A stretch of DNA of 64,000 nt from Alphaproteobacteria bacterium (lineage in GTDB: Bacteria; Pseudomonadota; Alphaproteobacteria; SP197). Position 1 is the first letter of the stretch. Each line of letters begins with the position of its first letter. The notes beneath the pieces are model-generated. The model did no database searches, was not told the DNA's origin, and worked only from the letters and a program-made list of their open reading frames with translations. Positions 35,676-64,000 of this stretch are shown one piece after another. The translations under genes were made by a program, and so were the position numbers. The stretch covers positions 2,400,001 through 2,464,000 of the forward strand of contig OZ219747.1 in the NCBI GenBank assembly GCA_964291265.2. Reading direction: 5' to 3'.

Positions 35676-35684
35676 GAGACTCCT

Positions 35685-37381: not shown

Positions 37382-37536
37382 GCCGGTCGCTCCCTCACAC
37401 ATGGCTTCGCCGGGCGGCATGCGACATCCGGCAACGACGAGACCGTTGTCCCGGTCTCGCACCCCACCCGCGGCACTGGTAGGATGGCTGCACATTACGT
37501 CATGACCGCATCATTGCAACGAGAGGCCGGCTGACC

Positions 37537-40060: not shown

Positions 40061-40264
40061 GCGCTCGGGCAGGGGAGATCATTCGCCTGTCTGCGTGGCG
40101 CGAGCGCTGTCCCATCCAACTTTGGACGAAGCGTTCGCAAGGCGCGATGCGGAAAACAACGTCCTGGGCTCTCGATGCGCATCTGTTCATCGCCGAAGCC
40201 GGCTGGGATGCGAGGCCTCGCGGGATTCCCGGATCCGGCATCATCGCCCGTGGCGTGCGGCGGG

Positions 40265-42554: not shown

Positions 42555-42566
42555 CGAACCGCCCGT

Positions 42567-43499
42567 TCAGCGGGCCAGGGCGTGTGGCAGTCTGAAGTGG
42601 ACATCCTCCTCGGAGACCCGGACGTCCCTGATTGTCACATCATGGTGGTCGCGCAGATACCCGAGCACGTCCTGAACGAGAGTCTCGGGCGCCGATGCAC
42701 CGGCCGTGAGACCGAGTGTCGACACGCCATCGAGATCAAGACCCGCCAGGTGGCAGGCATTCTCGATGAGACAGGCCCTTCCCGCCCCGGCCTTCAGCGC
42801 CTCTTCGACGAGCCTGGAGGAGTTCGACGATGCGGCGGACCCTACCACCAGAACCAGGTCGCTTTCGGGAGCGATGGCCCGCACGGCGGCCTGCCGATTG
42901 GTGGTGGCATAGCAGATGTCCTGTCGATGTGGTCCGTGGATGCCGGGAAAGCGTCTGCGGAGCACGTCGACGATATCCCTGGTGTCATCGACCGAGAGCG
43001 TTGTCTGGGTGATGTAGGCGAGTTCCTGATCGCCGCCGGGGTCCACGGATTCTGCTTCCTCGCGATTCTGCACCAGAAGGATGCTGTCTTCCGGCAGCTG
43101 CCCCATGGTGCCCACCACTTCCGGGTGCCCCTCGTGGCCGACGAGAATCATCCTGCGGCCCTTGCGGTGATGTTTCTGCGCCTCGATGTGGACCTTGGTG
43201 ACGAGCGGGCATGTCGCATCGAAGTGGACGAGGTTCCGCCGGCGCGCTTCCTCCGGCACCGCTTTCGGCACGCCGTGTGCCGAGAACACCACGGGCCGGT
43301 CGGTCTGCTCGATCTCTTCGAGTTCCTCGACGAACACCACACCCTTGGCTTCGAGGGACGCCACCACATGCCGGTTGTGGACGATTTCGTGCCGCACGTA
43401 GACCGGAGCGCCGTAGAGTTCGAGCGTTCGCTCGACGATCTCGATCGCCCGGTCGACACCGGCACAGCAACCCCTGGGACTGGCAAGGAGTATCTCCAT
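42567..43499 (-). CDS. ispH: 4-hydroxy-3-methylbut-2-enyl diphosphate reductase
   Basis: PRGCCAGVDRA, HEIVHN, FSAHG, DATCPLVTKVH, DICYATTNRQ, SSNS. Confidence 0.97.
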   Translation of the reverse strand: MEILLASPRGCCAGVDRAIEIVERTLELYGAPVYVRHEIVHNRHVVASLEAKGVVFVEELEEIEQTDRPVVFSAHGVPKAVPEEARRRNLVHFDATCPLVTKVHIEAQKHHRKGRRMILVGHEGHPEVVGTMGQLPEDSILLVQNREEAESVDPGGDQELAYITQTTLSVDDTRDIVDVLRRRFPGIHGPHRQDICYATTNRQAAVRAIAPESDLVLVVGSAASSNSSRLVEEALKAGAGRACLIENACHLAGLDLDGVSTLGLTAGASAPETLVQDVLGYLRDHHDVTIRDVRVSEEDVHFRLPHALAR

Positions 43500-43587
43500 G
43501 ATCACATCGTTCTGCTTGTTTGCGGCGGCGCCGGGTTCTATTCTGGGACGCTAGACCATAACTTGCCGTGTGAGAGAAGGACAAGGC

Positions 43588-43830
43588 ATGAGTGAAGGTG
43601 CCGTCGTGGCCGCGAAATCTCCTTTCAAGGTGGAGCTCAAGGAAGGCGAAAGGCAGTTCTGGTGCAGTTGCGGTCGCAGCGCCCGGCAGCCTTTTTGCGA
43701 TGGTTCCCACAAGGGAACCGGCTTCGTGCCCATCACCTTCATCCCCGACAAGACGGGCACGGCCTGGCTGTGCGCCTGCAAGCGGACCGGGAACCGTCCC
43801 TACTGTGACGGTACCCACGGTTCTCTCTAG
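43588..43830 (+). CDS. CDGSH iron-sulfur domain protein (two motifs)
   Basis: WCSCGRS..QPFCDGSH and LCACKRT...PYCDGTH. Confidence 0.93.
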   Translation: MSEGAVVAAKSPFKVELKEGERQFWCSCGRSARQPFCDGSHKGTGFVPITFIPDKTGTAWLCACKRTGNRPYCDGTHGSL

Positions 43831-47962: not shown

Positions 47963-48262
47963 ATGGAACGCTTCCTGTCCATGATCAAAGCCGTTGTCAT
48001 CGGGCTTGGCGTCCTCATCGTCGTGCTCACGGGCGTCCTTGTCGCCGGTGTCCTCGACCGGGGCAGCGACACCACGCCGATCGGTGACCACAGGGACGGC
48101 GCCGTCGCCCTGCCGGCGGGTTCCAGGGTGCTTTCCATCGCCTCGGATGACAGTCGGCTGTCGCTGCTCCTCGAACTGGCGTCCGGTTCCCGGGTTGTCC
48201 TGACCATCGATGGCCTCACCGGGGAACCGCTCTCCACGCTCGAGCTCATTCCCCGCCCCTGA
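47963..48262 (+). CDS. Small membrane-anchored hypothetical protein
   Basis: KAVVIGLGVLIVV TM then LPAGSRVLSI; divergent from rluD. Confidence 0.7.
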   Translation: MERFLSMIKAVVIGLGVLIVVLTGVLVAGVLDRGSDTTPIGDHRDGAVALPAGSRVLSIASDDSRLSLLLELASGSRVVLTIDGLTGEPLSTLELIPRP

Positions 48263-48473
48263 TCAGGTGCGCACCCCTGGTCGCCGTTGACGCAGGGGGC
48301 CATGGTGCCGTCGAGGCCGGTCCTGTCAGGGGGCGGCGGACCTGAGTTCCCCATTCCCGTTGGTTCGGGGCTCCCCGCCGTGGTCAGTGGACGTATCCTG
48401 CGTTCATGCGTCCTCTGTGTTGTGTGCGCCTGGCGCCGGGGGGTAGGTTGTCGTGACGGACCGGGAACCGTTC

Positions 48474-50075
48474 ATGGCGAGGTACTTTCTGACGAAGACG
48501 CCGGTTGATCCGGGTTCCCTTGTGGAGGTCGGTGGGGCTCCGGTTCTGGCGCGCCATGATGTGCTGATGCAGGCGTTGTCGGGGGTGGCGGAGCCTGCGA
48601 GCGCGAGTGTTCTGGCGGAGCCTGTGCTCAGTCTTGGCAACGACCGGGCGGCGGCGACGGTGTCGTGGTACACCAGCCATGCCGGTGAGGCGCAGCGTCT
48701 GTCGGACCTGGACCCTGACCGCCGTGAGGCGGTGGAGTCTGTGTTGCGCGTGCGCCTGGCGGATGTTGCCCGTGGCCTGTCGGATCCCACGTTCGGGGCC
48801 CTGGTGGGCGGTGCGCTCAATGTGATGGACCCTGGCGATGTGTGGGTTGTGTCAGGTCAGCCGGTTGTGGTGGGCTGGGGCATGGCGCCCGGTGATGTGG
48901 CGCGGGATCGGCATTTTGCGGCGACCATGGGGCGGTGGCTTGCGTTGGCGCCGCGGGATGCGCCGTTGCCGCCTGCGGAGAGGGCTGATGTGCCGCCACC
49001 CCCTCCTCCTCCGCCCGTGGTGACGGCAGGGGGAGGCGGCGTCTGGCGCTGGGTGCCTCTGGCGCTGCTGTTGCTCGTGACGGCGGCGGTGCTGGTGTGG
49101 TTGCTTCTGCCGGGCACGCGGGTGCTGCCTCCGGAGCCCCGGGAAGGAGTTGTGGGGGATGCCGAGGCGCTGCGCATGGTGCGCGAGGCGAACGCCGCCC
49201 TGGAGAGCCGGATCGTGGAACTCGAGATGGCGATTGCCGGTGCGGTGTGTCTTGCCGATGGCGAGCTGGAGTTGCCGGACGGGCGCCGTCCCGAGGACAT
49301 CCTGCCGCCGCTTCCCGGAGTTGCCGAGGCGCCGTCGGGTTCCCGCCGGGGCGAGTCGGAGGCGTCCCTGGCGGAGCCGGCGACGCTTCTGGAGTTGATC
49401 GAGGAGCGCACGGTCATGGTGGTGGCCGGTGACGGTGAGAGGCTGAGCCTGGGGAGCGGTTTCTTTGTTGCCGGGGATCTGGTGATGACCAACGAGCACG
49501 TGGTGTCGGGCAAGGGGGGGATCGGTGTTCTCAACAGGTCTCTTGGGTTCCTGCATCGGGCCGAGGTTGTGGGCCTTGACGGTCCCATTGAGGCGACGGG
49601 CGGCGACTTTGCGCTGTTGCGCGTGGCGGATGCGGACCAGCCGTTCTTTTCCTTCGTGGAGGCCGAGGGTTCGCTGCGTCTTCAGTCTGTCATTGCGGCG
49701 GGCTATCCCGATCTCATCGTGAGTTCGGATGCGGCGTTCATTGCCCTGATGGAGGGTGATGCCGCCTCGATTCCGGATGTGGCGCTGACGGAGGGGATTG
49801 TCAGCGCGGAACAGGCTCTCCGGGCGGCCCCGGGTGTTGTGGCGGACGTGTTGATTCACACGGCGGACATATCCAGGGGCAATTCCGGCGGTCCGCTGAT
49901 TGACCGGTGTGGCCGCGTGGTGGGGGTCAACACGCTGACGCGTTCGGACGACGAGGTGATGCGGCGTCTCGACATTGCGCTGCGGGCGTCGGGCGCCGTG
50001 GACTTTCTTGAGGCGGCGGGTGTTCCCGTGGTGTCGGGCGGGGAGGCGTGCGCGCCCGCGGCGCCTGACGGGTGA
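48474..50075 (+). CDS. SrfA-like N-terminal domain + TM + coiled coil + trypsin-like serine protease
   Basis: SWY...PVVVGWG domain, poly-Pro linker, TM; triad motifs TNEHVV, DFALL, GNSGGP. Confidence 0.85.
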   Translation: MARYFLTKTPVDPGSLVEVGGAPVLARHDVLMQALSGVAEPASASVLAEPVLSLGNDRAAATVSWYTSHAGEAQRLSDLDPDRREAVESVLRVRLADVARGLSDPTFGALVGGALNVMDPGDVWVVSGQPVVVGWGMAPGDVARDRHFAATMGRWLALAPRDAPLPPAERADVPPPPPPPPVVTAGGGGVWRWVPLALLLLVTAAVLVWLLLPGTRVLPPEPREGVVGDAEALRMVREANAALESRIVELEMAIAGAVCLADGELELPDGRRPEDILPPLPGVAEAPSGSRRGESEASLAEPATLLELIEERTVMVVAGDGERLSLGSGFFVAGDLVMTNEHVVSGKGGIGVLNRSLGFLHRAEVVGLDGPIEATGGDFALLRVADADQPFFSFVEAEGSLRLQSVIAAGYPDLIVSSDAAFIALMEGDAASIPDVALTEGIVSAEQALRAAPGVVADVLIHTADISRGNSGGPLIDRCGRVVGVNTLTRSDDEVMRRLDIALRASGAVDFLEAAGVPVVSGGEACAPAAPDG

Positions 50076-50902
50076 GGGGGCGTGGCGGCCTTGTGGCGGC
50101 GTTGGTCGGGGTGCCGGTGCTTGTCGTGCTGGCGCTGTGGATTGCCTCGCTTCTTCTGGAGAGTTGCGCCCTTGGTCCACTGACCCGCTGGCTGGGCGCC
50201 TGTCCGTCGGCGGCGGTCGGCGTCTCGGGTGACCTCGATGCCGAGATGGAGCACACCGGCCGCCTGGAGGACCGGGTGCGTCGGCTTGAACGCCATCTGG
50301 CGCTGTTGCGCGACTGTCCCCGGGTGCTGCCGGAGCCGCCCCCCGCAGGCCCGCAGCCCGTGCCTGCGCAGGAGCCTTCTGCGCCCCCGGAAGAACCGCT
50401 CCCCGCAGACGATTCCGACCCGCCGGAGGAGGACCGGTTGCCGGCGGCAGACGAGGAGTCGTCGGAATTCGACGAGAGGCTGGAAGACCAGGAGGGAGAG
50501 GTCAGCGAGGAGTTGACGGTGACGCTCATCTGGAATGATGAATCCGATCTCGACCTTGAAGTGCACTGCCCCGGAGGCGGGGCGGTGGGGGTCGTTGCGC
50601 AGGGCTGTGGCGGCGGCATTCTCGACGTGGACGCCAACGGATATGGATCCGGAGGCCTGAGGATGATGGCAAGGCCTGTGGAGAACATCCGTTTTCGCAG
50701 AGAGGCGCCGGAAGGAGAATACTGGGTCCGCATCTTCATTGCGGAAGCCTACGAGACGTCCCGAGGAGATGATCGCCGGCGCAACCTGGGACGCCATCCG
50801 TTCAGTGTCAGGGTCATCTCGCGGGGAGAAGCGACAGTGTTCGAGGGTTTTCATGAAGGCCTCGGTCGTGGTGATGTCTGGCTGAGTTTCACCCACGAGT
50901 GA
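50072..50902 (+). CDS. Membrane-anchored YfaP/DUF2135-like protein
   Basis: N-terminal TM, coiled coil, Pro/acidic linker, VTLIWNDESDLDLEVHCP...LDVDAN...PVENI. Confidence 0.75.
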   Translation: MRGRGGLVAALVGVPVLVVLALWIASLLLESCALGPLTRWLGACPSAAVGVSGDLDAEMEHTGRLEDRVRRLERHLALLRDCPRVLPEPPPAGPQPVPAQEPSAPPEEPLPADDSDPPEEDRLPAADEESSEFDERLEDQEGEVSEELTVTLIWNDESDLDLEVHCPGGGAVGVVAQGCGGGILDVDANGYGSGGLRMMARPVENIRFRREAPEGEYWVRIFIAEAYETSRGDDRRRNLGRHPFSVRVISRGEATVFEGFHEGLGRGDVWLSFTHE

Positions 50903-50918
50903 GGGAAACACCGCATCG

Positions 50919-52112
50919 ATGCCCGAAACCCTTGTGACCCGTACCTATGCGGAGGGCCTGAGACCGCTCGGGACCGCATCGCAACGCAACCCCGCGCTGA
51001 TCGCGGAGACCTTGCGGGTCCATCTCACCCCGGCCCACGTCCTGCTCTTCTGCGAGCCGTCACCGACGCCGGACGGCGTGGCGACGGACTGGTACGCGCA
51101 GTGCGTCGGGGCTGTGCGACAACTCGACAGTCTCGAGGGGGACGAGGCTTCCACTGCCCGCACGCGGCTGGGCGAGCTGGTCGGGGATATCCTCGCCCTT
51201 GCCGATCGTCTGGAGGCTGTCGGCGGCCAGTCGGACCGGCGTCTGGCGGAGGCACTGCGCAATGGCGTGGAGGTGCCGGCCAGCGATGCCATCTGGCTCA
51301 TGGGCGATCAGCCCCTCCTTGTCACCTGGGGCTACGCGCGCGATATCGACAAGGCGCCTCGTGGCATCATACGCCGGTTCATACCCGCAAGACCTCCTCC
51401 GCCCCCGCCACCCCCGTCCAGGGTCGTCGGGGATGCCGTGGCCGCGCCCGGCCGGCAAGGATCCGCGCCCGACGTCCTGTGGTGGCTGGGCTGGCTTCTC
51501 CTGACGGTGCTCGTCATGCTGGTGTTCTGGCTGCTGGTCGCGCCTTGCGCCGTGGTGCTGCCGGGCCTGGCGCCCTTCGGCAGGTGTCCGCCCGTCCCCT
51601 CGATGGCGCTCGTGGAGGAACGGCAAGTCCTCGACACACTCGAGAATCGCGTCGCCATGCTGGAACGTGAACTCGCTCTTCTCGACGGAAACTGCCGGGA
51701 AGAGCCCGACGAGGCGACCGATATCGTCCTCCAGGAAGGCGGGACCATGGGGGCCGTCAACATCATCCTGTCCTGGCAGGGCAGCGCCGATCTCGACCTT
51801 TCGGTGAGCTGCCCCGGTGGCGGAGTGATCGATTTCCGGAACAAGCAGGCCTGTGGCGGCGAGCTCGACATCGATGCCAACGTCGGCTTCACGATGCCGG
51901 CACCGGTCGAGAACGTCGTTTTCGACGACATGCCGAGCGCCGGAACCTACCCGGTCCAGGTCCATCTCCATGATTACCGGAACGATGACCCGGGCGCGCC
52001 GAGGCACTTCACGCTGACCGTCGTCATTGACGGCGAGGAAACGGTTCACAATGGTACTGTCGACGGTGACAATGCACGTTGGCGCACGGACATCGTGATG
52101 GGAGGCGTCTGA
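50919..52112 (+). CDS. SrfA-like N-terminal domain + TM + YfaP/DUF2135-like domain
   Basis: DWYA...PLLVTWG, poly-Pro, TM, ILSWQGSADLDLSVSCP...LDIDAN...PVENV. Confidence 0.78.
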   Translation: MPETLVTRTYAEGLRPLGTASQRNPALIAETLRVHLTPAHVLLFCEPSPTPDGVATDWYAQCVGAVRQLDSLEGDEASTARTRLGELVGDILALADRLEAVGGQSDRRLAEALRNGVEVPASDAIWLMGDQPLLVTWGYARDIDKAPRGIIRRFIPARPPPPPPPPSRVVGDAVAAPGRQGSAPDVLWWLGWLLLTVLVMLVFWLLVAPCAVVLPGLAPFGRCPPVPSMALVEERQVLDTLENRVAMLERELALLDGNCREEPDEATDIVLQEGGTMGAVNIILSWQGSADLDLSVSCPGGGVIDFRNKQACGGELDIDANVGFTMPAPVENVVFDDMPSAGTYPVQVHLHDYRNDDPGAPRHFTLTVVIDGEETVHNGTVDGDNARWRTDIVMGGV

Positions 52113-55100
52113 TGAGGGAGAAGGAAGCGATCCTTCGCCCGGTTTCCGACTGGGGAGACACGATCACGCTGATCCCCTTCAGCGGGGTCCAGATGCTCGA
52201 CTTCGGATTCAACCTCGACGGCGTGCCGTTTCGTTCCCGACGCTTCATTGAACGGGTCACGCACCAGGAAGGCGGTGACGCCGCCTGCGATCTCATCCCT
52301 CTCGTCGACGAGGAAGACCGCAACGAAGGGATTCGTGCGGCCGGGAACATCGATGACGTCGAGTATGGCTTGCGGGCAGTGCAGGGCCTTGAACCCTTCC
52401 TCGAGAAGTGGGTTCCGGTGCCGATCCTGCGTGTCAGGCCGGGTCTGGGTTCCGACCGCAGCGAGCGCCATGATGACGGCCCTTTCGGATGGGCGCGGTT
52501 GCGGGTGGTCGAACTCGAGCGCAGCGATCCCGATACCGGCCATTCGCACCGCATCCAGATCGCGTTCGACACGACGCTGGTCGACGAGGGACCGGGGGGA
52601 CGCTATCTGCAGCCCCTCTTCAAGGACAGCGAGGACGAGCGGGAGTTTCGCCTGGTCAGCAGTGCCGACCACGTCACGCCGTTCCTGACATATGTCCAGG
52701 ACGACGAAACCCTGTCCGGGAAGGTGGATACCCAGGCCTGGGTGGCGGACTGGATCGAGGAAATCTTCATCGAGTTCAAGAAGGCAAGAGTCGGCAGACG
52801 CGCCCTCAGGGACGAGGATTTTCCCTACCGTCTCGAACATCTTGCACGGTTCCTGACCCTCCTGGCATTCATCGATTCCGCAGTCAGGGTGCCACGCTTC
52901 AAGCTCGTCGACGTGGTCTCGGACGAAGCCAGGCATGCACCGCTCGATGTCGACCTAGTCCTCGACATCGGCAACAGCAGGACCTGTGGCATTCTCATCG
53001 AGAGCGCGGCTGGCCAGACTTCGGTCGATCTTTCGAACTCCTATAGTCTGGAGATTCGCGACCTGTCGAGACCGGAGCTTCACTCGACTGGTGTGATCGA
53101 CAGCAGGGTCGAATTCGCCGCGGCGGAGTTCGGACGCGAACACATCGCCCGGCGCTCCGGACGCCGGGATGCCTTCCAGTGGCCCTCGATCGTGCGAACC
53201 GGACCGGAAGCCAATCGCATGGTTCGCCAGGAGGAAGGCACCGAGACGGCCTCGGGCCTGTCGTCGCCCAAGCGCTATCTCTGGGACCTCGAGCCATCGG
53301 TGAGCGAATGGCGATTCCAGAATCACATGGACGCGCAGAACATGCCGCGCATCGCCCGGTCCGCGTGCCGCTATCTCAACGACAACGGCGATGTCATCGA
53401 GCAGGTCAGGCGCGACGTCTCGGACCGTCTGCGTGACCGCAAGGACGCGAAGGTCGACATGGCGGTCAGGCCCAGGTTTTCCCGCTCGGCGCTCTACGGA
53501 TTCCTTGTCGGAGAACTGATCAGTCATGCGCTGGTGCAGATCAACGACCCGGCCTCCAGGGCCCGGCGGGCACGTTCTGCCGTCCCCCGGCGCCTGCGCA
53601 CCGTCATCCTCACCCTGCCTTCGGCGACACCCATGCAGGAGCAGGCGATCATCCGTTCCAGAGCCGAGGGAGCGGTTCGTCTGATCTGGTCCATTCTCGG
53701 CTTCGGAGAGGACGCCGCGGCCACCTGTTCCCGGCCAAGGCTGGTTGTTGACTGGGATGAAGCGAGTTGCACCCAGCTGGTCTGGCTCTACACCGAGATC
53801 GCCCGCAAGTTCGAAGGCAGGATCGACGAATACATGGCGCTCAAGGGACGGCCCAGAGTCCAGGAAGACGGCGGAGCCCCGGAAAACTCCATCCGCCTCG
53901 CCTGCATCGACATCGGCGGCGGCACCACCGATCTCATGGTGACCTCCTACTTCGGCGAGCGCGACAAGCTCATGATCCCGCGTCAGGTATTTCGCGAGGG
54001 TTTTCGCATTGCCGGCGACGATGTCACGCGCGAGGTGGTGGCATCGATCGTCCTGGGCCGCATCGCCGATTCCATCGAGGCCGCAGGCGGCGCCTGGGTC
54101 CGCGAGCGACTGTGCGAGCTCTTTGGCGGCGATGTGGGCGGCATGGATCAACGGATGCGCCAGATGCGCCGGCAGTTTTCCCTGAGGATTCTGGCGCCGC
54201 TGGCGGTTGCCACGCTGCACGCATGCGAGAACATCGCAGAGGATGCCACGTTCGAAATCCGCGTGGCGGACGTCCTCGGGTATCGTGAAGACGGGAATGG
54301 AACGCTGGAGCTCGACGTGCCCTCAGGTCTTGTCGCCTACCTCGAAGACCCGGTTCGGGAGGCCGGGGCACGCGACTGGCGCCTTGCCGATGCCACGATG
54401 AGGATTCGCCGTTTCGAGGTTGATGCATCGGTACGCGGCGTTCTGCAGAAGGCCCTGCAGGACATGGGCAGGGTGATCGACCATCTCGGCGTCGACGTGA
54501 TCCTGCTGACCGGGCGGCCCTCCAGGCTTCCGGCTGTCCGGGCACTGATCCGTGACATGATGATCGTGCCGCCGGACCGCCTGGTGTCCATGCATCGCTA
54601 CCGCGTCGAGGAGTGGTATCCCTTCCGCGATCCCGTGACCAACCAGGTCGGCGACCCGAAGAGCACGGTGGCGGTGGGAGGCATGCTGTGCGCTCTCAGT
54701 TCAAGCCGCATCGCCAGTTTCCGCCTGCGCTCCGAGCACCTGCAGATGCGCTCCACGGCCCGATTCGTCGGCGTCATGCATACCGCCGGGCAGATCTTCG
54801 ACAGGGACGTGCTCTTTGCCGAGGACGACGGCATGGCGCCGGGCGATGCTGTCGAGGATGAGGCGGTGCTTGCCGCCTACAACCCGGTTCACGTGGGCTT
54901 CCGCCAGATTGCCGATGAGAGGTGGACGACAACGCCGCTCTACCTCCTCGACTTTGCCAATGAGAGTGTGTTGAAACGCCCCCTCCCGGTGCGGGTGACA
55001 CTGAGACGGCGTGACTCCCATGCGGACCCCGAGAACCCCGATCACGTTCTGCGTCTCGAGGCGGCGAGGGAGGCGTTTGTGGTTGACTACGTCGAGGATG

Positions 55101-55204
55101 GCGCAGGCGATGCCTGTCACCGCGACGATGTCAGGCTGCGTCTGCAGACGCTCGGGCCCGAGGACCACTACTGGCTCGACACCGGCATCGTCCGGCTGGC
55201 GTGA
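52112..55204 (+). CDS. srfB: Virulence factor SrfB family protein (actin/Hsp70-like ATPase motifs)
   Basis: ITLIPFSGVQMLDF, GPFGWAR, LDIGNSRTCGILIE, SSPKRYLWD, WDEASC.Q, IDIGGGTTDL, LTGRPSRLP, YWLDTG. Confidence 0.92.
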   Translation: MREKEAILRPVSDWGDTITLIPFSGVQMLDFGFNLDGVPFRSRRFIERVTHQEGGDAACDLIPLVDEEDRNEGIRAAGNIDDVEYGLRAVQGLEPFLEKWVPVPILRVRPGLGSDRSERHDDGPFGWARLRVVELERSDPDTGHSHRIQIAFDTTLVDEGPGGRYLQPLFKDSEDEREFRLVSSADHVTPFLTYVQDDETLSGKVDTQAWVADWIEEIFIEFKKARVGRRALRDEDFPYRLEHLARFLTLLAFIDSAVRVPRFKLVDVVSDEARHAPLDVDLVLDIGNSRTCGILIESAAGQTSVDLSNSYSLEIRDLSRPELHSTGVIDSRVEFAAAEFGREHIARRSGRRDAFQWPSIVRTGPEANRMVRQEEGTETASGLSSPKRYLWDLEPSVSEWRFQNHMDAQNMPRIARSACRYLNDNGDVIEQVRRDVSDRLRDRKDAKVDMAVRPRFSRSALYGFLVGELISHALVQINDPASRARRARSAVPRRLRTVILTLPSATPMQEQAIIRSRAEGAVRLIWSILGFGEDAAATCSRPRLVVDWDEASCTQLVWLYTEIARKFEGRIDEYMALKGRPRVQEDGGAPENSIRLACIDIGGGTTDLMVTSYFGERDKLMIPRQVFREGFRIAGDDVTREVVASIVLGRIADSIEAAGGAWVRERLCELFGGDVGGMDQRMRQMRRQFSLRILAPLAVATLHACENIAEDATFEIRVADVLGYREDGNGTLELDVPSGLVAYLEDPVREAGARDWRLADATMRIRRFEVDASVRGVLQKALQDMGRVIDHLGVDVILLTGRPSRLPAVRALIRDMMIVPPDRLVSMHRYRVEEWYPFRDPVTNQVGDPKSTVAVGGMLCALSSSRIASFRLRSEHLQMRSTARFVGVMHTAGQIFDRDVLFAEDDGMAPGDAVEDEAVLAAYNPVHVGFRQIADERWTTTPLYLLDFANESVLKRPLPVRVTLRRRDSHADPENPDHVLRLEAAREAFVVDYVEDGAGDACHRDDVRLRLQTLGPEDHYWLDTGIVRLA

Positions 55205-55219
55205 GGGATGGGGCATGTC

Positions 55220-57880
55220 ATGAGCGAGCGCGCTGAAGGACTGGCGAAACGCTGCCTCGCGGTGGCGGATCTGGCAAGCCGGGCCGGCGCCTGGATCAGC
55301 GATGACGCCAACCGGGAAAAGGTCGGCGCCCAGGGGCCTGCATTCGCCCGGGACTTCCGCCGCGCACGGGTTCGCGCCGACAAGCTTGCCACGGCAGCCG
55401 GCCGGAACATGTGCGTGGGTGTCTATGGACCGAGCCAGGCCGGCAAGTCCTATCTCATTTCGGTGCTCGCAAGGCCAAGGGGCGGAGATCTCGTGGCGGC
55501 CTTCGACGGCGCCAGGCGCCCCGTCACCTACCTCGACGAGATCAATCCGGAGGGACAGGGAGAATCGACGGGCCTCGTCACCAGGTTCACCACACGCAAG
55601 GTGCCGGCGCCTCCGGGTTATCCGGTCGGGGTCAGCCTGCTTTCGGAAGCGGACATCGCAAGGGTGTTGATCAACTCCTTTGCCGAGGATGGCGACAACA
55701 CGGAGACCCCACCGTCGGCGGAAGAGATCGAACAGTTGCTGGAGACGGCACGAGGGCAGGCAGGCGACCCGGGTCAGGCCATGACCATCGAGGAGATGTG
55801 GGATGTGCAGGATTACGTCGTCAGTCACTTCGGTCACCTCGCCTACTTCGCTCCCCTGGCCGACTACTGGAACCGTGCGGCCGACCTTGTGCCGCGGGTC
55901 AACCTGGCCACGCGAGCCGGTCTCCTCGCCGTTTTCTGGGGGCGCCATGCGCCCCTGACGGACCTCTACCTCGCGCTCGCCGGACATCTTGAAGCGCTCG
56001 GCGGAGTCCGCGATGCCTTCGTTCCTCTCGAGGCCCTCGTTCCACGCGAAACGTCGATCATCGATGTTCAGACCCTGAAGGACCTGGACCGCAAGGCGCA
56101 CGGCAATCTCGATCCGGTCGAGGTGACAACCGGGGACGGTGCCGTGGCACGCATCGGGAGGGGACATCTGTGTGCCATGGTGGCCGAGATGATCATTCCC
56201 ATGGCGGGTGTGCCGTGGGAGTTCATGCACAGGACCGATCTTCTCGACTTTCCCGGCACACGGAATCGCTTCACCCATGATCTCGGCCGGTTCCTTGCCG
56301 AGGGCGAATCGCCGGTCTCCCAGCTCTTCCTGCGCGGCAAGGTCGCCTATCTCTTCGATCGCTATGTTGCCGAACAGGAAATGACCTCGATGATCCTGTG
56401 CATCGGCGACGGCAACATGGAGGCGAAGGATCTTCCGGGACTTGTCGAGAACTGGGTGGCTGCAACCCATGGCGACACGCCTGCCCGGCGGGCCGAGGCA
56501 CGGTGCATCCTGTTCTTCGTGCTCACCAAGTTCGATACACTGCTCGTCGAATCCGGCGGTTCAGGTGATGATCCGACGACGCGGTTCGAAAGGCGTATCC
56601 AGAATTCAATGGTGGAACCCTTCGGAAAGATGGCTGACGCCTGGATCAACGAATGGTTGCCGCAAACGCCCTTCAACAACACCTACTGGATGCGCAATCC
56701 GACCTACGAAGCGCCGTTGATCGCCTATGATGCGGACCGTCGCGAAGCCGCCATTCGCGAGGACATGATGGAACGACTCGAGACCCTGCGTCAGGGGGCG
56801 GTGGCGGCGCCGCTGGTCCAGCGTCATTTCTCCGATCCCCAGGCGGCCTGGGAGGCGGCGCTGACGATCGACGATGGGGGTGTCGGCCGACTGGCGGAAG
56901 CGCTGGCCGATGTCTGCCACATCGAGACCAAGCTTGACCAGATCAGTGATCAGCTGGATATCCTGATCGACGGCATCCAGCGTCCGCTCTCCCGGTTCCA
57001 TGTCTCCTCGGATCTCAAGGAGAGGCTGGCTCTGAGGCAGGAGGCGGCCGACACCGTCCTCGATAGTCTCGACATGTGCTTTGACGACAACCGGTTCGCC
57101 GAACTCCTCGAGGATCTGATGATCGACCCGGCGGTCGCTGCCGACCGCATGGCGCGCGTGCCCGGCGGTATTTTCATTGTCGCCGAAGGTCAGCAGCCCC
57201 CGCCCGGTGATTCGGTGGCCGCTGGCGGTCGGTCGGCAAGGCCCCGCCCCGGAGGGCGGCGGCAGGCGGAGGCGAAACCTCCCGTCGACACCGCAGAGGG
57301 ACCAAGGACAAGGCGCATGACCATGGAGGCCTTCCAGGCGGAACGTGCGCTGACGACGTGGATCGATGGCCTGCATGATCTCGCCGTCCGCCCGGAGTGG
57401 CGGCGGCGGTTCAGTCTGACCGAGCAGACGGCGAGCGACCTCGTGGCCGAACTCATCGAGGCGGCCCGACGCCTCCCTCTCCATGACGACATCGTGACCG
57501 CGCTCAGGAAGTGGAATTTCTCCCTCCACTCGGACCGCCGTGCCGCGCCTGCGGCGGCGATCGCGGCCGAGGCCATCAACTCCTTTGTTGCCCGTCTCGG
57601 CATGGACAGATTACCGCAGGACAGGCGTCCGCAGGTTGAACTGGAAGGGAACAGGACACGGCCGGTGTTCGGGGAGCGGCCCTCCAGGGATGATGTCACG
57701 TCCTTCTCGTTTGCTTACGGCACCGGCACCGAGGATCGGTTTGTCGACTGGACCCATGGCCTCTTCCGGGTCTTCGAGGACAATGCCCGGTGCGTTGGCG
57801 GAGAGACCGTGGATACGGAGCAGAACCTCGTGCTCGGCGAGATTGTCGCAAGGCTTGAGGCGAACAGGATGGCGACATGA
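55220..57880 (+). CDS. srfC: Virulence factor SrfC family protein (P-loop GTPase-like)
   Basis: GVYGPSQAGKSYLIS, INPEG.GESTGLVTRFT, DLLDFPG.R, LRGKVAYLFDRY, TKFD. Confidence 0.92.
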   Translation: MSERAEGLAKRCLAVADLASRAGAWISDDANREKVGAQGPAFARDFRRARVRADKLATAAGRNMCVGVYGPSQAGKSYLISVLARPRGGDLVAAFDGARRPVTYLDEINPEGQGESTGLVTRFTTRKVPAPPGYPVGVSLLSEADIARVLINSFAEDGDNTETPPSAEEIEQLLETARGQAGDPGQAMTIEEMWDVQDYVVSHFGHLAYFAPLADYWNRAADLVPRVNLATRAGLLAVFWGRHAPLTDLYLALAGHLEALGGVRDAFVPLEALVPRETSIIDVQTLKDLDRKAHGNLDPVEVTTGDGAVARIGRGHLCAMVAEMIIPMAGVPWEFMHRTDLLDFPGTRNRFTHDLGRFLAEGESPVSQLFLRGKVAYLFDRYVAEQEMTSMILCIGDGNMEAKDLPGLVENWVAATHGDTPARRAEARCILFFVLTKFDTLLVESGGSGDDPTTRFERRIQNSMVEPFGKMADAWINEWLPQTPFNNTYWMRNPTYEAPLIAYDADRREAAIREDMMERLETLRQGAVAAPLVQRHFSDPQAAWEAALTIDDGGVGRLAEALADVCHIETKLDQISDQLDILIDGIQRPLSRFHVSSDLKERLALRQEAADTVLDSLDMCFDDNRFAELLEDLMIDPAVAADRMARVPGGIFIVAEGQQPPPGDSVAAGGRSARPRPGGRRQAEAKPPVDTAEGPRTRRMTMEAFQAERALTTWIDGLHDLAVRPEWRRRFSLTEQTASDLVAELIEAARRLPLHDDIVTALRKWNFSLHSDRRAAPAAAIAAEAINSFVARLGMDRLPQDRRPQVELEGNRTRPVFGERPSRDDVTSFSFAYGTGTEDRFVDWTHGLFRVFEDNARCVGGETVDTEQNLVLGEIVARLEANRMAT

Positions 57881-58794
57881 CGTTCAGGATCATTCCGGAC
57901 CCCCGCCACCCGCTGGGAGGACACGCCCTTCTCACCATGGACGAGGGACAATCGACCGGCAACGGTCAGCTGACCATCCGCCGGTCCTATGACTTGCGCT
58001 ACCTCGGAGCATCGGGCTGGCAATTGGCCAAGGCAACGCTCGGGCCTCTGGAGTCCGCCGCGAACGGCCTCATTCTCGGTCCCGATGTGGTGCGTCATGT
58101 TGACGAATTCGACAACCTCGAGATCACGTTCGAGGGCGGCAGCGCCGGCAGCGTCGTATGGCCCGGCAGCGTCCTTCTTGCTCCCGATGCGGCGCGCGAC
58201 GGCGGTTTCGCCAGGAGCGTGACTGAACACGCACCGGATGTTCCCGTGGTGGCGGCAGGGCAGACGGAAACTGAAGGAGAAGGTGAACCACCACCGGCCG
58301 ACAGCCCTCACGCCTCACGTCGTGGCGCCTGCGTCGTCCTTGCCCTGGTGGTCGTGGTCCTCGGGATAGCAGCGGCTCTCTACGTTCTGCGGGACGATAT
58401 CGTCGAGCCGCAGACGGCGAAGACGGGGCTGCCGTGCAGCGATGATGCCGTGACCGGTGTCGCGGAGACAGACTTGCTGCTTGAATGGGTCGAGCGATGC
58501 GGGACCGACGAGGGAGTCGCTCCGCAAACGCGGTTGTCGGTTGTCGAAAGACTGATTGGCAAGACACCGGATGCGCTTGTCGTCATGGGCGGCTGGTACG
58601 ATCCGGCCCTTGAATCCGATTCGTCCCCCTTCGAAAGGCCAGCCCTCGAGATTGCGGCGCGCTACTACGCCGACGCCGCCGACGCCGGGGTTGATGGCGC
58701 ACAGGGTCTTCTCGATGACGTCTGCGGGCGTCTCGATGCGGACAACTTCATGCAGAACGACGCCATTGATCTCTACTGTGGAGGAGGGCAGTGA
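57877..58794 (+). CDS. Bitopic membrane protein with Sel1-like helical C-terminus
   Basis: YLGASGWQ...LGPDVV N-domain, TM, ALVVMGGWYDP...AARYYADAADAG; coupled to srfC. Confidence 0.65.
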   Translation: MTFRIIPDPRHPLGGHALLTMDEGQSTGNGQLTIRRSYDLRYLGASGWQLAKATLGPLESAANGLILGPDVVRHVDEFDNLEITFEGGSAGSVVWPGSVLLAPDAARDGGFARSVTEHAPDVPVVAAGQTETEGEGEPPPADSPHASRRGACVVLALVVVVLGIAAALYVLRDDIVEPQTAKTGLPCSDDAVTGVAETDLLLEWVERCGTDEGVAPQTRLSVVERLIGKTPDALVVMGGWYDPALESDSSPFERPALEIAARYYADAADAGVDGAQGLLDDVCGRLDADNFMQNDAIDLYCGGGQ

Positions 58795-60737
58795 TGCGTC
58801 TGCGCCTCATGGTGCTCGCCGTTGTTGCGGTCCTGGCGGGTGTGGTCGGTTCGGCCGTTGAAGCCCAGGGGGAGAGGCCGCTCCTGATCGATGGCACGAA
58901 CACGCTCTATCAACGTGTTCTCACGCGCCCCGGCACACCACGCTTCGATGCGCCTCAAGGCGTTGTCCAGGACCTCTACCCTGCGTTCCAGCCTCTCTAT
59001 GTCTTTGGCCGTGAAGGTTCCTGGCTCCAGGTCGGGGGAGCGGCCGGGATGCCGGCCGAAGGATGGGTGAACGAGGACGCCACGATCGACTGGCGCTACA
59101 ATGTCGTTGCCGCATTCACAAGCACTGCAGGCAGGGAGCGCCAGCTCCTCTTTTCCGATCTCGCGTCACTGGACAGTCTGATCCAGAGCGAGGCCACGGT
59201 GTCGCTGGCCCGCGAGTTGAGGCAGACCATTGATGAAGGAGGGTCCGGGGAGACGTCGGGGGTGATCTCGATTGAACCGGCCGAATACGTCGACATCAAC
59301 GATGCCGAGACCTTCTATGTCCTGCCGATCCTCGAGTTCCACGAGGATTTCCATCCCATGAGCGCTGAGCTGTTTCTGAAGATGCGTGTCGCCTCGGTCC
59401 CGTTGCAGGACGAACCGATCGCCGAGCCTCCATTGCTGGAAGACTCCATCCGGGACTCTGATGCCGGCATCATGATCGTGCTCGACACCACCCGGTCGAT
59501 GGGGCCTTTCATTGCCGAAACCCTCGAGGTCATGGAGGAGGAGATCCGCAGGATTGCGAACACGGAAACCGGCGAGAGGGTGCATTTCGGCATCCTGGGC
59601 TTTCGTGACAATCCCGCCGCCGCCGAGGGAATCGAGTACCGGGTTCGCGTCTTTTGTCCCCTCGACAGGGACAACGCCGTTGATGCGCCACTTGCCGCGC
59701 TCTCGTCCATGGAGGTCGCCGGAGTGTCCACGCCCGGCTACAACGAGGACAGTCTTGCGGCCATCCGCCATGCCCTGGAGGAGACCGACTGGGCGCCAGG
59801 TGGCATGGAATTCGTCAAGAAACTCATCATCCTCGTGACCGATGCCGGGCCCAAGACTGCGCGGGATCCCAATGCCGAGACCGACATCAACGCTGCATCT
59901 CTTCAGGCGATGGCAAGGGAGCAGGATGTCGGCATCATCGTCATCCATCTCCTCACGCCGGATGGGGTGGCGAACCACGAGTACGCGGCGAACCACTACC
60001 GGGAACTTGCCGCGGCACTCGGCCATGTCTTCTATTATCCGGTGGCCGGTGGGCCGCAGGATTTTGGCACCGAAGTCCGTTCGACCATCACCGGGGTCAT
60101 GTCCCAGGTTTCCAGAAACCTCGAGGGTGAACTCACCGAGGTGCCAGAGCCTGACGAGACCGGTGCATTGCCCGAGGGGGCGGAACTCGATGTGCTCGGA
60201 CTGGCCATGGAACTTGCCTATCTCGGGCGTGTGCTCGAAACACGGGCGCCGGACGTGTTCGAGGCCTGGGTGGCGGACCGGGCGCTCGAGGACTCGCGCA
60301 AGGTCGCGGTCGAACCGCGCCTGCTGATTACGAAGAACCAGCTGTCGTCGCTGCGCGACGTGCTTGATGCCGTGCTCGAGGTCGGGGAGAACACCCAGAC
60401 GCGCGGTGCGGCGCACGATTTTTTCGGCCGACTTCAGGGCGCCGTATCGCGCATGGCCCAGGATCCCGACAGGTTGATCAACACCGATTTCGATACCCTT
60501 GGGAGCGCCTTTGGCGAATTTCTGGAGGGACTTCCCTATCAGAGCCGGGTGATGGAGATCACCCAGGAACGCTGGGACAGCATGGGAACGGGACGACGTC
60601 AGATCATCGATGACCTGAGAAGCCGTTTCCTGCTCTATGAACGCTGGCATGACGACCCCTCACTGTGGGTGGCGCTCTACGACGACGCGCCCGACGGCGA
60701 GCATGTCTATGCCATGCCCTTCGGAGCCCTGCCCTGA
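58791..60737 (+). CDS. Secreted vWA-domain protein resembling the periplasmic part of T6SS kinase PpkA (no kinase domain)
   Basis: Signal peptide (VEA|QG), PLLIDGTNTLYQRVLTRPG, MIDAS LDTTRSM, VTDAG, LEGLPYQS, C-terminal VYAMPFGALP. Confidence 0.82.
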   Translation: MMRLRLMVLAVVAVLAGVVGSAVEAQGERPLLIDGTNTLYQRVLTRPGTPRFDAPQGVVQDLYPAFQPLYVFGREGSWLQVGGAAGMPAEGWVNEDATIDWRYNVVAAFTSTAGRERQLLFSDLASLDSLIQSEATVSLARELRQTIDEGGSGETSGVISIEPAEYVDINDAETFYVLPILEFHEDFHPMSAELFLKMRVASVPLQDEPIAEPPLLEDSIRDSDAGIMIVLDTTRSMGPFIAETLEVMEEEIRRIANTETGERVHFGILGFRDNPAAAEGIEYRVRVFCPLDRDNAVDAPLAALSSMEVAGVSTPGYNEDSLAAIRHALEETDWAPGGMEFVKKLIILVTDAGPKTARDPNAETDINAASLQAMAREQDVGIIVIHLLTPDGVANHEYAANHYRELAAALGHVFYYPVAGGPQDFGTEVRSTITGVMSQVSRNLEGELTEVPEPDETGALPEGAELDVLGLAMELAYLGRVLETRAPDVFEAWVADRALEDSRKVAVEPRLLITKNQLSSLRDVLDAVLEVGENTQTRGAAHDFFGRLQGAVSRMAQDPDRLINTDFDTLGSAFGEFLEGLPYQSRVMEITQERWDSMGTGRRQIIDDLRSRFLLYERWHDDPSLWVALYDDAPDGEHVYAMPFGALP

Positions 60738-60748
60738 CAAGGGCGGCC

Positions 60749-61462
60749 ATGCGCTTCGTCCTCGAGCGCGTGTCGCGCACCCTGGAGAGTTCCACCCGCA
60801 GGTTCGAACTCGATATCCCGGCCTTCAAGGTGGATCGCGGCGAGGTGGTCGCCCTTGTCGGCGACAGCGGTTCGGGCAAGACGGCTATGATGGAGCTTCT
60901 CGCGCTCGCTGCGGCACCCGATGAAGGCGGGTGCTTCGTGCTGGCTGGCGATGAAGAGGTCGACATTGCCAGACTGTGGCGTCAGGCACGGTTGAAGGAT
61001 CTCGCCGCGACAAGGAGCCGGCATCTCGGATTCGTGGCCCAGACCGGCGGACTCCTCGAGTTTCTGACGGTGAGGGAGAATGTGGCTCTGGCTCAGGATG
61101 TCGCCCGCAGGCATGACCGTCAGCGTGTCGACCGGCTGGCCCGGACACTGGGCCTTGAGAGCGTCCTCGATGAACGCCCGGCCGGGCTGTCCATCGGACA
61201 GCGCCAGCGGACCGCGATCCTGCGCGCCCTCGCTCATCGTCCGTCCTTTGTCATCGCCGATGAACCGACCTCGGCGCTCGACCCCCGCACCGCCCGTGAA
61301 GTCATCGATCTCCTTCTCGAGACAGCGGCAGGCGAGGGGGCGGGCATCATTGTTTCGACCCACAACGTTGCGCTGATGTCCCACGCCGGCGTCGAGACTG
61401 TCCCTGTCGTGCCCGTTTCCGGAACGGCTCACTGGGTCAGTCGCGTGGAGCGCCGGCGATGA
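60749..61462 (+). CDS. ABC transporter ATP-binding protein (TagT/LolD-like)
   Basis: GDSGSGKT, QTGGLLEFLTVREN, LSIGQRQR, ADEPTSALD, STH. Confidence 0.9.
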   Translation: MRFVLERVSRTLESSTRRFELDIPAFKVDRGEVVALVGDSGSGKTAMMELLALAAAPDEGGCFVLAGDEEVDIARLWRQARLKDLAATRSRHLGFVAQTGGLLEFLTVRENVALAQDVARRHDRQRVDRLARTLGLESVLDERPAGLSIGQRQRTAILRALAHRPSFVIADEPTSALDPRTAREVIDLLLETAAGEGAGIIVSTHNVALMSHAGVETVPVVPVSGTAHWVSRVERRR

Positions 61463-62655
61463 TCCTCGTCCGCCTTGCCATCGCCGACCTCTGGCACGAC
61501 CGGATCATGGCGCTCTGCAACATGGCCGCCATCATCGGCATCGTGGCACCGCTTGGCATTCTCTCCGGCATCAAGACGGGTGTTGTCGATGCCCTCATCC
61601 ACGATCTCGCCACCCGCCCTGACATCCTGCGGGTCGCCATCTCGGGCAATCACGGGTTTGCACCGGGCGATATCGAGGAGGTGGCGGGCTGGCAGGAAAC
61701 CGGATTCGCGGTTCCGTCGTCGCGGTCCATAGCCCGGCGTCTCATGGTCCGTCGCGAAGGCGGAACCGTCATCCGCCGCGCCGCGCTCGTTGCCACAGGT
61801 GCGGGTGAACCCTGGCTCGCCGACAGTGAGGTCATCACCGAGGACGAGGTGGCGGCGAGTTCCGCTCTGGCACGGCGTCTCGACCTTGTCCCCGGTGATC
61901 GTCTCGAAGCGGTTGCGCGCCGTGGCGAGACCGGCGAGACCGTGCTGACACTGACGCTGAAGGTCGCAGCGGTGCTGCCCCGGGGCACGCTGGCCGGAGA
62001 CGGGTTGCTGATGACGCCCGCCCTCATGGACGACATCGAGGCCTTCTATGACGGCTACGCGGTGACACGTCTCGGCATGGACGAGGGCCGACCGCTGATC
62101 GAGAGAACGCGACTGGCCGAAAGCATGCGTCTCTATGCCGCAGATCTGTTATCCGTAGCTCCTCTCGAAGACCGTCTCGAGAAACGGTTCGGCATCGAGG
62201 CCTCGTCGGATGCCTCAGAGGTCGAAGCGACTCTCGATCTCGAACGCCGCCTCGGCCTTGCCCTCGATCTCGTGGTCGCTGCGGCGACCGCAGGGCTGTT
62301 TGCCGCCCTTGCGGCAAGCTTCTGGTCGATGACACGGGCACGCAGGCGGGGTCTTGCCGTGCTGGCGATGATCGGCATGCCACCGGCGCGTCTGGCCTGC
62401 TATCCGGTGTGTGTGGCGCTCGTGACGGCGCTCTTCGGCCTTGCCGGCACCGCCGGTCTCGTCATGGGCGGTGCGGTCGCAGCCACCCGCCTGTTCGGCG
62501 GGGATCTTCCGGGCGACGCATCCTTCATGCCGTCGCCTGGCGACGCAGCGCGCCTTTGCGCCGGTGTCCTCGTCATCTCCGCGGCGGCCTCCTTCCTCGC
62601 TGCCCGGGAGGCTGCCTGCACCCAACCCGGCGCCGTCTTCAGAGAGGAGGCATGA
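61459..62655 (+). CDS. ABC transporter permease (TagS/FtsX-MacB-like)
   Basis: LAIADLWHD N-terminus, 1 TM + periplasmic domain + 3 TMs, RLYA. Confidence 0.85.
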   Translation: MILVRLAIADLWHDRIMALCNMAAIIGIVAPLGILSGIKTGVVDALIHDLATRPDILRVAISGNHGFAPGDIEEVAGWQETGFAVPSSRSIARRLMVRREGGTVIRRAALVATGAGEPWLADSEVITEDEVAASSALARRLDLVPGDRLEAVARRGETGETVLTLTLKVAAVLPRGTLAGDGLLMTPALMDDIEAFYDGYAVTRLGMDEGRPLIERTRLAESMRLYAADLLSVAPLEDRLEKRFGIEASSDASEVEATLDLERRLGLALDLVVAAATAGLFAALAASFWSMTRARRRGLAVLAMIGMPPARLACYPVCVALVTALFGLAGTAGLVMGGAVAATRLFGGDLPGDASFMPSPGDAARLCAGVLVISAAASFLAAREAACTQPGAVFREEA

Positions 62656-64000
62656 CACTCCGGCACCTGATGGCGCGAGCGTTGCTGGCGGCCTCCCTGG
62701 TCGCTCCACCGGTGGCATCTGCCGCTGCGGAAACTGCCGTCACATGGGAAAGCCGGTTCTGGGACCGGACCGGCAACGCCGATCTGGTGCTGCCGTTGCC
62801 CTGTGGTGGCGCCATGGCCTTCCAGCGTGTCGACACGCCGGTTCCCGGAGGAAATCCGGCGAGCGACCGGCCGGTACAGATGGGCCTTGCCACGAGCGAG
62901 GCAGGTTATGTCGACTATCTGCGCCGCGCCTTCATCCGGGGCGGGTTCAGCAATCCCGAGGATGCCTCCGCGTTCTACTACATCGCCCGCTACGAACTCA
63001 CCCGCGATCAGCACGCGGCGCTCCTCGGCAACTGTTCCCGGCCCTCTCTTGCCGGCACGGTTCCGGCCTCCGGTCTTTCCTGGTTCGATGCTGTCGACGC
63101 GGCAAGGCGCATGACCGAATGGCTGCGTCAGAACGCGCCTCAGACACTGCCGCACGAGGACGGGACTCCAGGCTATGTCCGTCTGCCCACGGAGGTCGAG
63201 TGGGAATACGCCGTGAGGGGTGGGGCGGCTGTCGACGGGTCCGTCTTCAACCAGCGCACCTACCCTTTCGACGGACCCATGCGTGACCATGGCTGGCACC
63301 AGGGAGCGGATTCGGCACGTGGGCAACTGCGTCCCGTGGGCGTCCTCGATCCCAATCCACTCGGTCTGCACGAGGTTTATGGCAACGTCGAGGAGATCAT
63401 GCTCGAACCCTTTCGGCTCAACGCCCTGGGACGTCTGCACGGACAGGCAGGTGGTGTGGTCACCCGCGGCGGCTCGATCCTGTCGCGTGCCTCGGAACTG
63501 TCGAGCGGTCTGCGCCAGGAGTTTCCGGCCTATTCCATGGCGGGGGGCAAACCGGTGGCTCTCGACACCTTCGGGGTGCGGTTCGTGATCGGCATTCACC
63601 TGTCGCTGTCGACGGCACGGATCAACCGGTTGAGGAATGCCTGGCTCGATCGCTTCAACGACGGCGGCGACACCGACACCGACGCGAGCCTGACGGAGAT
63701 TCTCGACGTTCTGATCGCCGAGGAACTCGAACTCGAACGGCGCCTCGTCCTGGAAACGGCGCGTCTGCGCGCAACGGAGGACGCGCGCGAACGCGAGGCC
63801 AGCCGGCTTGAGGCCATGAAGGCGCTTGCCATCGGTGGTGCCGTCCTCGTGCAGTTCCTTCGCGAGGACAGTTCCGGGATCGAGCTTGCGATCCGTGCCA
63901 TCGCCACCTTTGACGCCGCCATCGATGAAGCAGAAGCCAGCGACGGACTCGTCGGCGATGAGGCAATCGATCGGCTCATCGACAAACGTGAAGCGGTGAG
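62652..64000 (+). CDS. Formylglycine-generating enzyme (SUMF1) family protein, TagR-like (3' truncated by window edge)
   Basis: Translated by hand (absent from ORF track because no stop is in the window): GGAGG RBS, signal peptide, DLVLPLPCGGAMAF, RLPTEVEWEYAVRGG, PNPLGLHEVYGNVEE. Confidence 0.88.
   Translation, partial: MTLRHLMARALLAASLVAPPVASAAAETAVTWESRFWDRTGNADLVLPLPCGGAMAFQRVDTPVPGGNPASDRPVQMGLATSEAGYVDYLRRAFIRGGFSNPEDASAFYYIARYELTRDQHAALLGNCSRPSLAGTVPASGLSWFDAVDAARRMTEWLRQNAPQTLPHEDGTPGYVRLPTEVEWEYAVRGGAAVDGSVFNQRTYPFDGPMRDHGWHQGADSARGQLRPVGVLDPNPLGLHEVYGNVEEIMLEPFRLNALGRLHGQAGGVVTRGGSILSRASELSSGLRQEFPAYSMAGGKPVALDTFGVRFVIGIHLSLSTARINRLRNAWLDRFNDGGDTDTDASLTEILDVLIAEELELERRLVLETARLRATEDAREREASRLEAMKALAIGGAVLVQFLREDSSGIELAIRAIATFDAAIDEAEASDGLVGDEAIDRLIDKREAV

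Follow-up and report, generated by a model that had tools for sequence, protein, structure and literature searches.

The 64,000-nt window analysed here (positions 2,400,001 to 2,464,000 of contig OZ219747.1, assembly GCA_964291265.2, from an Alphaproteobacteria bacterium of the SP197 lineage) ends in an operon that joins srf genes, including srfB and srfC, to relatives of tagT, tagS, tagR and the periplasmic part of the kinase PpkA, known from the H1 type VI secretion system (T6SS) of Pseudomonas aeruginosa. A first-pass annotation had described a co-oriented, mostly overlapping run of at least ten genes, which was confirmed as exactly ten plus-strand genes from 48474 to 64253, the tenth running 253 nt beyond the window end. 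With TM denoting transmembrane, the genes are:

g1, 48474-50075, + strand: SrfA-N head, Pro-rich linker, one TM helix, coiled coil and trypsin-like domain, predicted to be periplasmic
g2, 50072-50902, + strand: N-terminal TM/signal anchor, coiled coil and PPC/YfaP(DUF2135)-like domain; in the host genus it stands as its own gene
g3, 50919-52112, + strand: SrfA-N head, TM, coiled coil and PPC/YfaP-like domain
g4, 52112-55204, + strand: SrfB, predicted Hsp70-type ATPase
g5, 55208-57880, + strand: SrfC, predicted dynamin/mitofusin-like GTPase with intact G1-G4 motifs
g6, 57877-58794, + strand: unnamed bitopic protein with a conserved N-terminal head of ~100 residues, TM and Sel1-like C-terminal domain
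g7, 58791-60737 (alternative start 58794), + strand: vWA protein with a signal peptide, equivalent to the whole PpkA periplasmic part, with neither kinase nor TM
g8, 60749-61462, + strand: TagT-like ABC ATPase
g9, 61459-62655, + strand: TagS-like FtsX/LolE-type permease with four predicted TM helices
g10, 62652-64253 (window end 64000), + strand: TagR-like FGE-fold protein with a helical C-terminal domain

With the chosen starts, adjacent genes overlap by 1-4 nt at six of the nine junctions and are separated by 3-16 nt at the others; a GTG at 48453 is an alternative start for g1. The profile scan assigned g4 to SrfB (PF07520, E value 8e-303), directly followed by g5 (PF10139, 2e-245), and further assigned g7 to VWA, g8 to ABC_tran (LolD/DevA-like), g9 to FtsX and g10 to FGE-sulfatase. 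Among the family labels proposed initially, SrfB, SrfC, trypsin, vWA, ABC, FtsX and FGE were retained, as was SrfA-N on weak matches; YfaP proved a distant likeness, and the Sel1-like label of g6 came from ESM-Atlas neighbours, not from Pfam.

The sensor half of the operon was assigned by alignment. Residues 1-622 of g7 match, at 32-33% identity, the entire C-terminal part following the TM helix of ~1000-residue kinases from Pseudomonas-type T6SS clusters, whose genes are then followed by tagT, tagS and tagR; these are homologous to g8, g9 and g10 and arranged as in the present operon. Kinase motifs were confirmed in all five of the ~1000-residue g7-related proteins checked. The first-pass annotation had overlooked the identity of g7 as the periplasmic part of PpkA itself and the presence of a tagQ-like gene elsewhere in the genome. 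Compared with TagQRST-PpkA of the H1-T6SS, the order of PpkA ectodomain, TagT, TagS and TagR is common to both and a tagQ-like lipoprotein is encoded in the genome, whereas here the PpkA part has neither kinase domain nor TM, FHA and tss genes were not found, and the neighbours are SrfB and SrfC. Membrane damage in P. aeruginosa is reported to promote a TagQ/TagR complex, which binds the PpkA ectodomain via a TagR loop (PMC13713981); with the register set against Pseudomonas orthologues, g10 has the equivalent of this loop, two residues shorter. Full-length matches to g7 numbered 15 among 401 genomes. Eight are of kinase length, come from one family only, all lie within ~15 kb of tssC and never occur with srfB; the other seven are stand-alone ectodomains from six families, and six of their genomes carry srfB. 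The seventh stand-alone copy (L148-L149, G022:C35 ~34500-43700) belongs to a kinase-less vWA-tagT-tagS-tagR-tagQ set followed by an S41 protease, in a genome (G022) in which neither srfB nor tssC was found. A protease thereby recurs next to Tag modules, trypsin here and S41 in G022.

The tagQ-like gene, which encodes a glycine-zipper lipoprotein, is unlinked (C2:3965436-3966194, 1.5 Mb from the operon). Its product is 59% identical to the operon-linked copy of the congener G410 and matches the gammaproteobacterial TagQ profile with an E value of only 0.005. Together with a second lipoprotein gene it forms a pair (L153, C2:3964912-3966194), which in G410 stands at the operon end; the tagQ-like gene also adjoins the operon in G402. 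The pair in the host lies ~2 kb from transposase-like open reading frames (ORFs). Across 32 family genomes, which as relatives are not independent, the tagQ-like gene was present in all 11 with srfB (full-length in 10/10 congeners and weak in the other member) and, as a partial match, in one of the 21 without it.

The cytoplasmic pair of an Hsp70/actin-like ATPase and a GTPase that had been proposed from the outset was supported by the predicted structures of SrfB and SrfC. The SrfB model (predicted local distance difference test, pLDDT, 87.7) comprises an extra N-terminal domain of 275 residues, a nucleotide-binding domain and a C-terminal part resembling SBD-beta. Its best matches were Hsp70/Hsp110 (Foldseek E 1e-15; VIA Z 21.8, root-mean-square deviation, rmsd, 3.0 over 348 residues, beta-sandwich region included), which scored ahead of MreB and FtsA. 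The ASKHA fold carries phosphate-1, phosphate-2 and adenosine motifs, and the phosphate-1, phosphate-2 and catalytic-Glu positions are invariant over 40 sequences; on this model, SrfB is predicted to be an Hsp70-type ATPase. No J-domain or GrpE gene is present among the ten genes. The SrfC model (pLDDT 86.4) returned ten Foldseek hits at E<=1e-3, all of the dynamin family, and partial fits to mitofusin/Fzo1 (Fzo1 being the top VIA match, Z 14.4), SynDLP, BDLP and IniA. A helical neck/stalk and the motifs G1 (GxxxxGKS), G2 (T), G3 (DxxG) and G4 (TKxD) accompany this fold, which points to a dynamin/mitofusin-like GTPase. When the PDB was searched at sequence level, neither g7 nor the SrfB and SrfC profiles gave a significant match. 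As with BDLP, SynDLP, IniA and the cyanobacterial 'chaperone clade', whose dynamin genes are reported to adjoin DnaK-domain genes (PMC5827413), a predicted dynamin-like GTPase here stands beside an Hsp70-type ATPase; in contrast to those proteins, SrfC has no sequence-level match to solved structures, has a large helical insertion in the G domain and no predicted TM, and is coupled to a periplasmic sensor.

The locus survey covered 79 loci, namely the host's own, ten from congeners, 14 from an even sample of the phylum and the 54 best-scoring of 836 hits, and is biased towards alphaproteobacteria because of this best-scoring selection; L047-L050 were dropped as duplicates of four other loci. 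Among the 67 loci with room for g6, the gene accompanied a SrfC with intact G1 and G3 in 57 and a fragmented srfC in three. In the seven loci lacking g6, SrfC residues ~450-530 (~80 residues) were deleted in every case and G1/G3 failed in six, with the SrfB motifs still intact. A single SrfC-g6 fusion record was frameshift-scrambled and was discarded, and no g6-vWA fusion was found among proteins of 808-2305 residues, which is weak evidence. The Rhodoblastus locus L092 (3820-21958), which has no Tag genes, encodes four paralogues of the g6 head with differing periplasmic tips.

Upstream of srfB, g1 matched Trypsin_2 (E 3e-20) and, below the curated cut-off, the SrfA family profile NF040486 (2e-7), which g3 also matched below its cut-off (4e-15); in both proteins the match covers the N-terminal part, and each has one TM helix. 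Signalling had first been proposed to run through bitopic SrfA-like proteins; g6, and not SrfA alone, is a likely link. Among 143 SrfA-N proteins, 137 have a TM helix after the head, and the tips are interchangeable: trypsin in 51, YfaP-like in 48 and others in 44 (lipocalin-like, a second beta-domain, vWA or short). The His/Asp/Ser motifs of trypsin were kept in 55 of 57 homologous domains. The YfaP likeness of g2 and g3 is remote: of 32 family members, seven matched DUF2135 (4e-4 being the best E value). The domain profile also matches the C-terminal PPC/P-type domain of subtilases, a sequence likeness that would suit a protease accessory role. The canonical lipocalin-like SrfA-C tip is not present on g1 or g3, which bear trypsin and PPC/YfaP-like tips. 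An unlinked, head-less TM/coiled-coil/lipocalin gene, of a kind that adjoins ~20 srf loci, lies in the host genome at C2:1607387-1608055 (-), and the g1+g2 pair is duplicated in tandem in loci L105 and L110 (G404 and G411). Profile-profile comparison of SrfA-N and g6 with PpkA kinase domains, for which the kinase profile was shallow, gave no match.

Downstream content was compared for the 64 loci in which 6.3 kb or more followed srfC. Of these, 50 have g6 and all four Tag-like genes in the same order, two lack only the FGE gene, five have only g6 and seven have neither g6 nor Tag genes. Upstream, trypsin and YfaP-like tips were both present in 48 of the 65 loci with room, mostly with two or three SrfA-N genes. 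That the tag-like genes might track a T6SS rather than srfBC had been raised initially; srf and tag genes stand together in these 50 loci, and one family does have its eight kinase-fused copies near tssC. The 12 of 64 loci with srf but no Tag genes, along with Tag cassettes lacking srf (in G022 and the eight T6SS copies), would suit two adjacent but separate modules, the srf core with g6 and the Tag cassette, to which we nevertheless give little credence: the g6/g7 junction is translationally coupled, the conserved order of the 50 loci extends across classes, and even the unlinked tagQ follows srfB. Equally improbable is a surface-motility accessory. Salmonella srf mutants are reported to be swarming-defective (PMC4219756), but flagellin was not found in any of the 23 genomes of the host genus, for which a swarming role was therefore rejected.

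The operon is perhaps best read, with a probability of roughly 45%, as a trans-envelope damage-response machine for repair or remodelling of the inner membrane with local periplasmic proteolysis. On a breach of the envelope, a TagQ/TagR-like complex would form, with TagST ATPase activity, a damage step borrowed from P. aeruginosa; the TagQ/R/S/T-like proteins and the kinase-less PpkA ectodomain would thus sense the breach, and soluble g7 would cluster. Because it is soluble, g7 would need a bitopic partner, most likely g6, to which it may pass the signal. Clustering of g6 and the SrfA-type anchors would follow, the g6 head docking SrfC and the SrfA-N heads docking SrfB. SrfC could then act on the inner membrane to seal or remodel it, with SrfB assembling or recycling SrfC, and the tethered g1 protease, with its PPC-like partner domains, may remove damaged or foreign proteins from the periplasm there.

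Several observations weigh against this interpretation. The fit of SrfC to dynamins is loose overall (at best rmsd 5.7 over 351 residues), and SrfC has no predicted TM. The link between g6 and SrfC degeneracy was drawn from one family (f45) and may reflect a single event; moreover, g6 is kept in five loci whose genomes have no match to the host g7 query, so contact between g6 and g7 is not obligatory. Salmonella srfABC is reported to be under Cpx and Rcs regulation, and the Rcs envelope-stress pathway, according to a review, represses it, although the Salmonella locus is of the reduced type. Xenorhabdus SrfABC is reported to be cytotoxic (PMC6950479). Finally, TssC was found in 13 of 14 genomes with srfB against 77 of 386 without it (Fisher p 2e-8, overstated by kinship) and in 30 of 48 further srf genomes, counted over 48 of the 54 loci with five short loci and L102 left out; repair alone does not predict this enrichment.

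The TssC counts (13/14 against 90/400 overall, in six of seven families) instead favour a contact or attack response, in which the same sensor would counter incoming T6SS or predator strikes, or tune the cell's own T6SS in trans, and the protease would degrade delivered effectors; sharing the sensor with the H1-T6SS counter-attack pathway argues in the same direction. We consider this explanation unlikely. In the 13 genomes, which include non-independent kin, tssC never adjoins srf, lying on another contig or >100 kb away, and TssC was not found in any of the 33 host-family genomes, the host included, 12 of which carry srfB. In the host genome itself, listed as 100% complete, searches for TssC, TssF, Hcp, VgrG, the Hanks kinase Pkinase and FHA gave no match, with positive controls matched, which excludes action through its own T6SS as far as the searches reach. 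The window holds no T6SS structural genes, as first stated, and none follow: instead of a T6SS with kinase and Fha, which had been considered as a possible continuation, an M23 peptidase gene on the opposite strand and then an rRNA operon lie downstream of g10, with no T6SS, kinase or FHA gene. The operon would work in the manner of the P. aeruginosa Tag sensor but, having no kinase, FHA or T6SS, is not a member of that phosphorylation pathway.

It belongs to the srf-tag family already in print, whose alphaproteobacterial variant was not found described in the literature searched. In host-associated Deltaproteobacteria, Campbell et al. (2013) report srfABC, tagQRST and ppkA as a neighbourhood of ten genes, with T6SS genes in only one of these bacteria (PMC3608642), and Sun et al. 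(2019) report T6SS control genes beside Xenorhabdus srfABC, whose lysates and proteins were cytotoxic and co-precipitated (PMC6950479). A 2026 preprint describes SrfA as bitopic, SrfA-N as a non-catalytic kinase-like fold and the cassette as a Lol-like exporter with vesicle export (bioRxiv 10.64898/2026.09.18.752743), and a table of the P. syringae 'ppkA locus' includes srfB (PMC7146990). Since the combination of srfABC with tag/ppkA genes in the absence of a T6SS was published in 2013, 2019 and 2026, the pairing was already known and the system is not new. The published loci (Deltaproteobacteria, Xenorhabdus and Haemophilus) likewise place srfA, srfB and srfC by vWA/PpkA-like, ABC ATPase, permease and FGE genes, mostly lack T6SS machinery and have a bitopic SrfA; here, in contrast, two SrfA-N anchors carry trypsin and PPC/YfaP-like tips in place of the lipocalin SrfA-C, a TM-PPC gene is added and tagQ is displaced. 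Those papers take PpkA to be a kinase, or the cassette to export a toxin, whereas no kinase is present in the operon examined here. Literature searches, which mostly did not extend to subscription papers, retrieved none that called SrfB Hsp70-like or SrfC dynamin-like or that noted a kinase-less PpkA at srf loci, and srf is not mentioned in two T6SS papers.

On the published reading, SrfABC would be an exported three-part toxin, and the ABC, vWA and FGE genes a dedicated Lol-like module for its export and processing (vesicle route). The Xenorhabdus cytotoxicity and co-precipitation (PMC6950479), the vesicle export proposed in the 2026 preprint and the host-associated distribution reported in 2013 (PMC3608642) accord with it. 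We hold it to be quite improbable, given that neither SrfB nor SrfC has a signal or TM segment and both keep invariant NTPase motifs, that the 'export' genes are gene-for-gene relatives of Tag/PpkA, that environmental Roseobacteraceae, Roseomonadaceae, Devosia and Cereibacter carry the locus, and that the toxicity assays, as reported, used lysates or forced expression.

Similarly improbable is an anti-phage system that would sense breaching of the envelope when phages inject or lyse the cell, and whose dynamin would restrict lysis or spread. The Bacillus subtilis dynamin DynA delays phage lysis, and a defence role would suit the variable periplasmic tips, the paralogue expansion, the patchy presence of srfB (10 of 22 congeners) and the carriage on plasmids (144 records, srfB being found on 114 Klebsiella plasmid records). 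On one conjugative Klebsiella plasmid, IS1 and IS66 elements flank an srf-tag locus that is complete and includes tagQ (L127, 8007-24323). Against such a role, comparison of the srf and tag proteins with the PADLOC library (2023) returned nothing but generic protease and ABC hits, inspection revealed no defence-type families among recurring srf-locus neighbours, and the flanks here are housekeeping genes, namely rluA-like/rpoH-like genes, as read from ORF sequences, and the rRNA operon.

Returning to damage response and repair, the Tag/PpkA-ectodomain sensor may, as a tentative extension, be an older, kinase-free and portable damage module whose widespread partner is an Hsp70-dynamin repair machine. 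The H1-T6SS switch would then be a kinase fusion in one family, and Salmonella srfABC a stripped remnant with a decaying GTPase. The seven stand-alone ectodomains in six families, set against eight kinase fusions in one, favour this order of events, as does the placement of the T6SS copies in Tag trees as a shallow clade, sister to the srf-linked G136/G280. The evolutionary direction is not established: in the rooted tree test, srf monophyly was not rejected (approximately unbiased, AU, test, p 0.21), and the ABC tree, rooted with six dipeptide-type ATPase outgroups, gave a basal polytomy. Salmonella-type loci share SrfA-N, SrfB with intact ATPase motifs and a SrfC homologue with the operon, but consist of three genes only, without g6 or tag genes, and their shorter SrfC has mostly degenerate GTPase motifs; the named Salmonella record has this layout and these degenerate motifs, and its srfC is interrupted in that record.

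Two unexplained subjects meet in this operon, namely the function of SrfABC and the role of TagS/T and the PpkA ectodomain. The comparison suggests that Salmonella genetics examined a reduced form, and labels such as 'virulence factor' may mislead. A lineage free of T6SS, kinase and flagellum keeps the whole set, and its core operon is also present in the culturable non-pathogens Cereibacter, Ruegeria and Sedimentitalea; direct tests of damage sensing and of the recruitment of a bacterial dynamin are therefore possible. The value of the analysis lies in this testable re-reading of two unexplained systems, likely as an envelope repair machine rather than a secreted toxin, and not in a new system.

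Some minor observations concern the ends of the operon and the rest of the window. The downstream M23 gene, convergent with the operon end, encodes a large LysM/M23 peptidase (4421-7846 (-) of locus L001); its ORF start overlaps the 16S region, so that the true start must be later. An ORF at 64250-65521 was rejected as an eleventh gene, being antisense to the M23 gene and without a Pfam hit. A scan confined to the operon end revealed neither a sigma-70 promoter nor a terminator pattern. A gene annotated as encoding a peptidoglycan-binding-domain protein recurs in L126 (8489-9916) and 13 other loci, at one end or the other of srf-tag operons of the Rhodobacterales type, and is possibly a further operon member. 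The strongest skews of the window (GC skew 0.163, AT skew -0.318) fall at 48001-50000, in the g1 region, and differ from the rest of the operon, so a separate origin of this g1 copy is possible. A gene at 6493-11991 (- strand), in a region of distinct skew, encodes a protein of 1832 residues in which fibronectin type III repeats occur several times (five stretches matching Pfam fn3), possibly a host-interaction surface protein.

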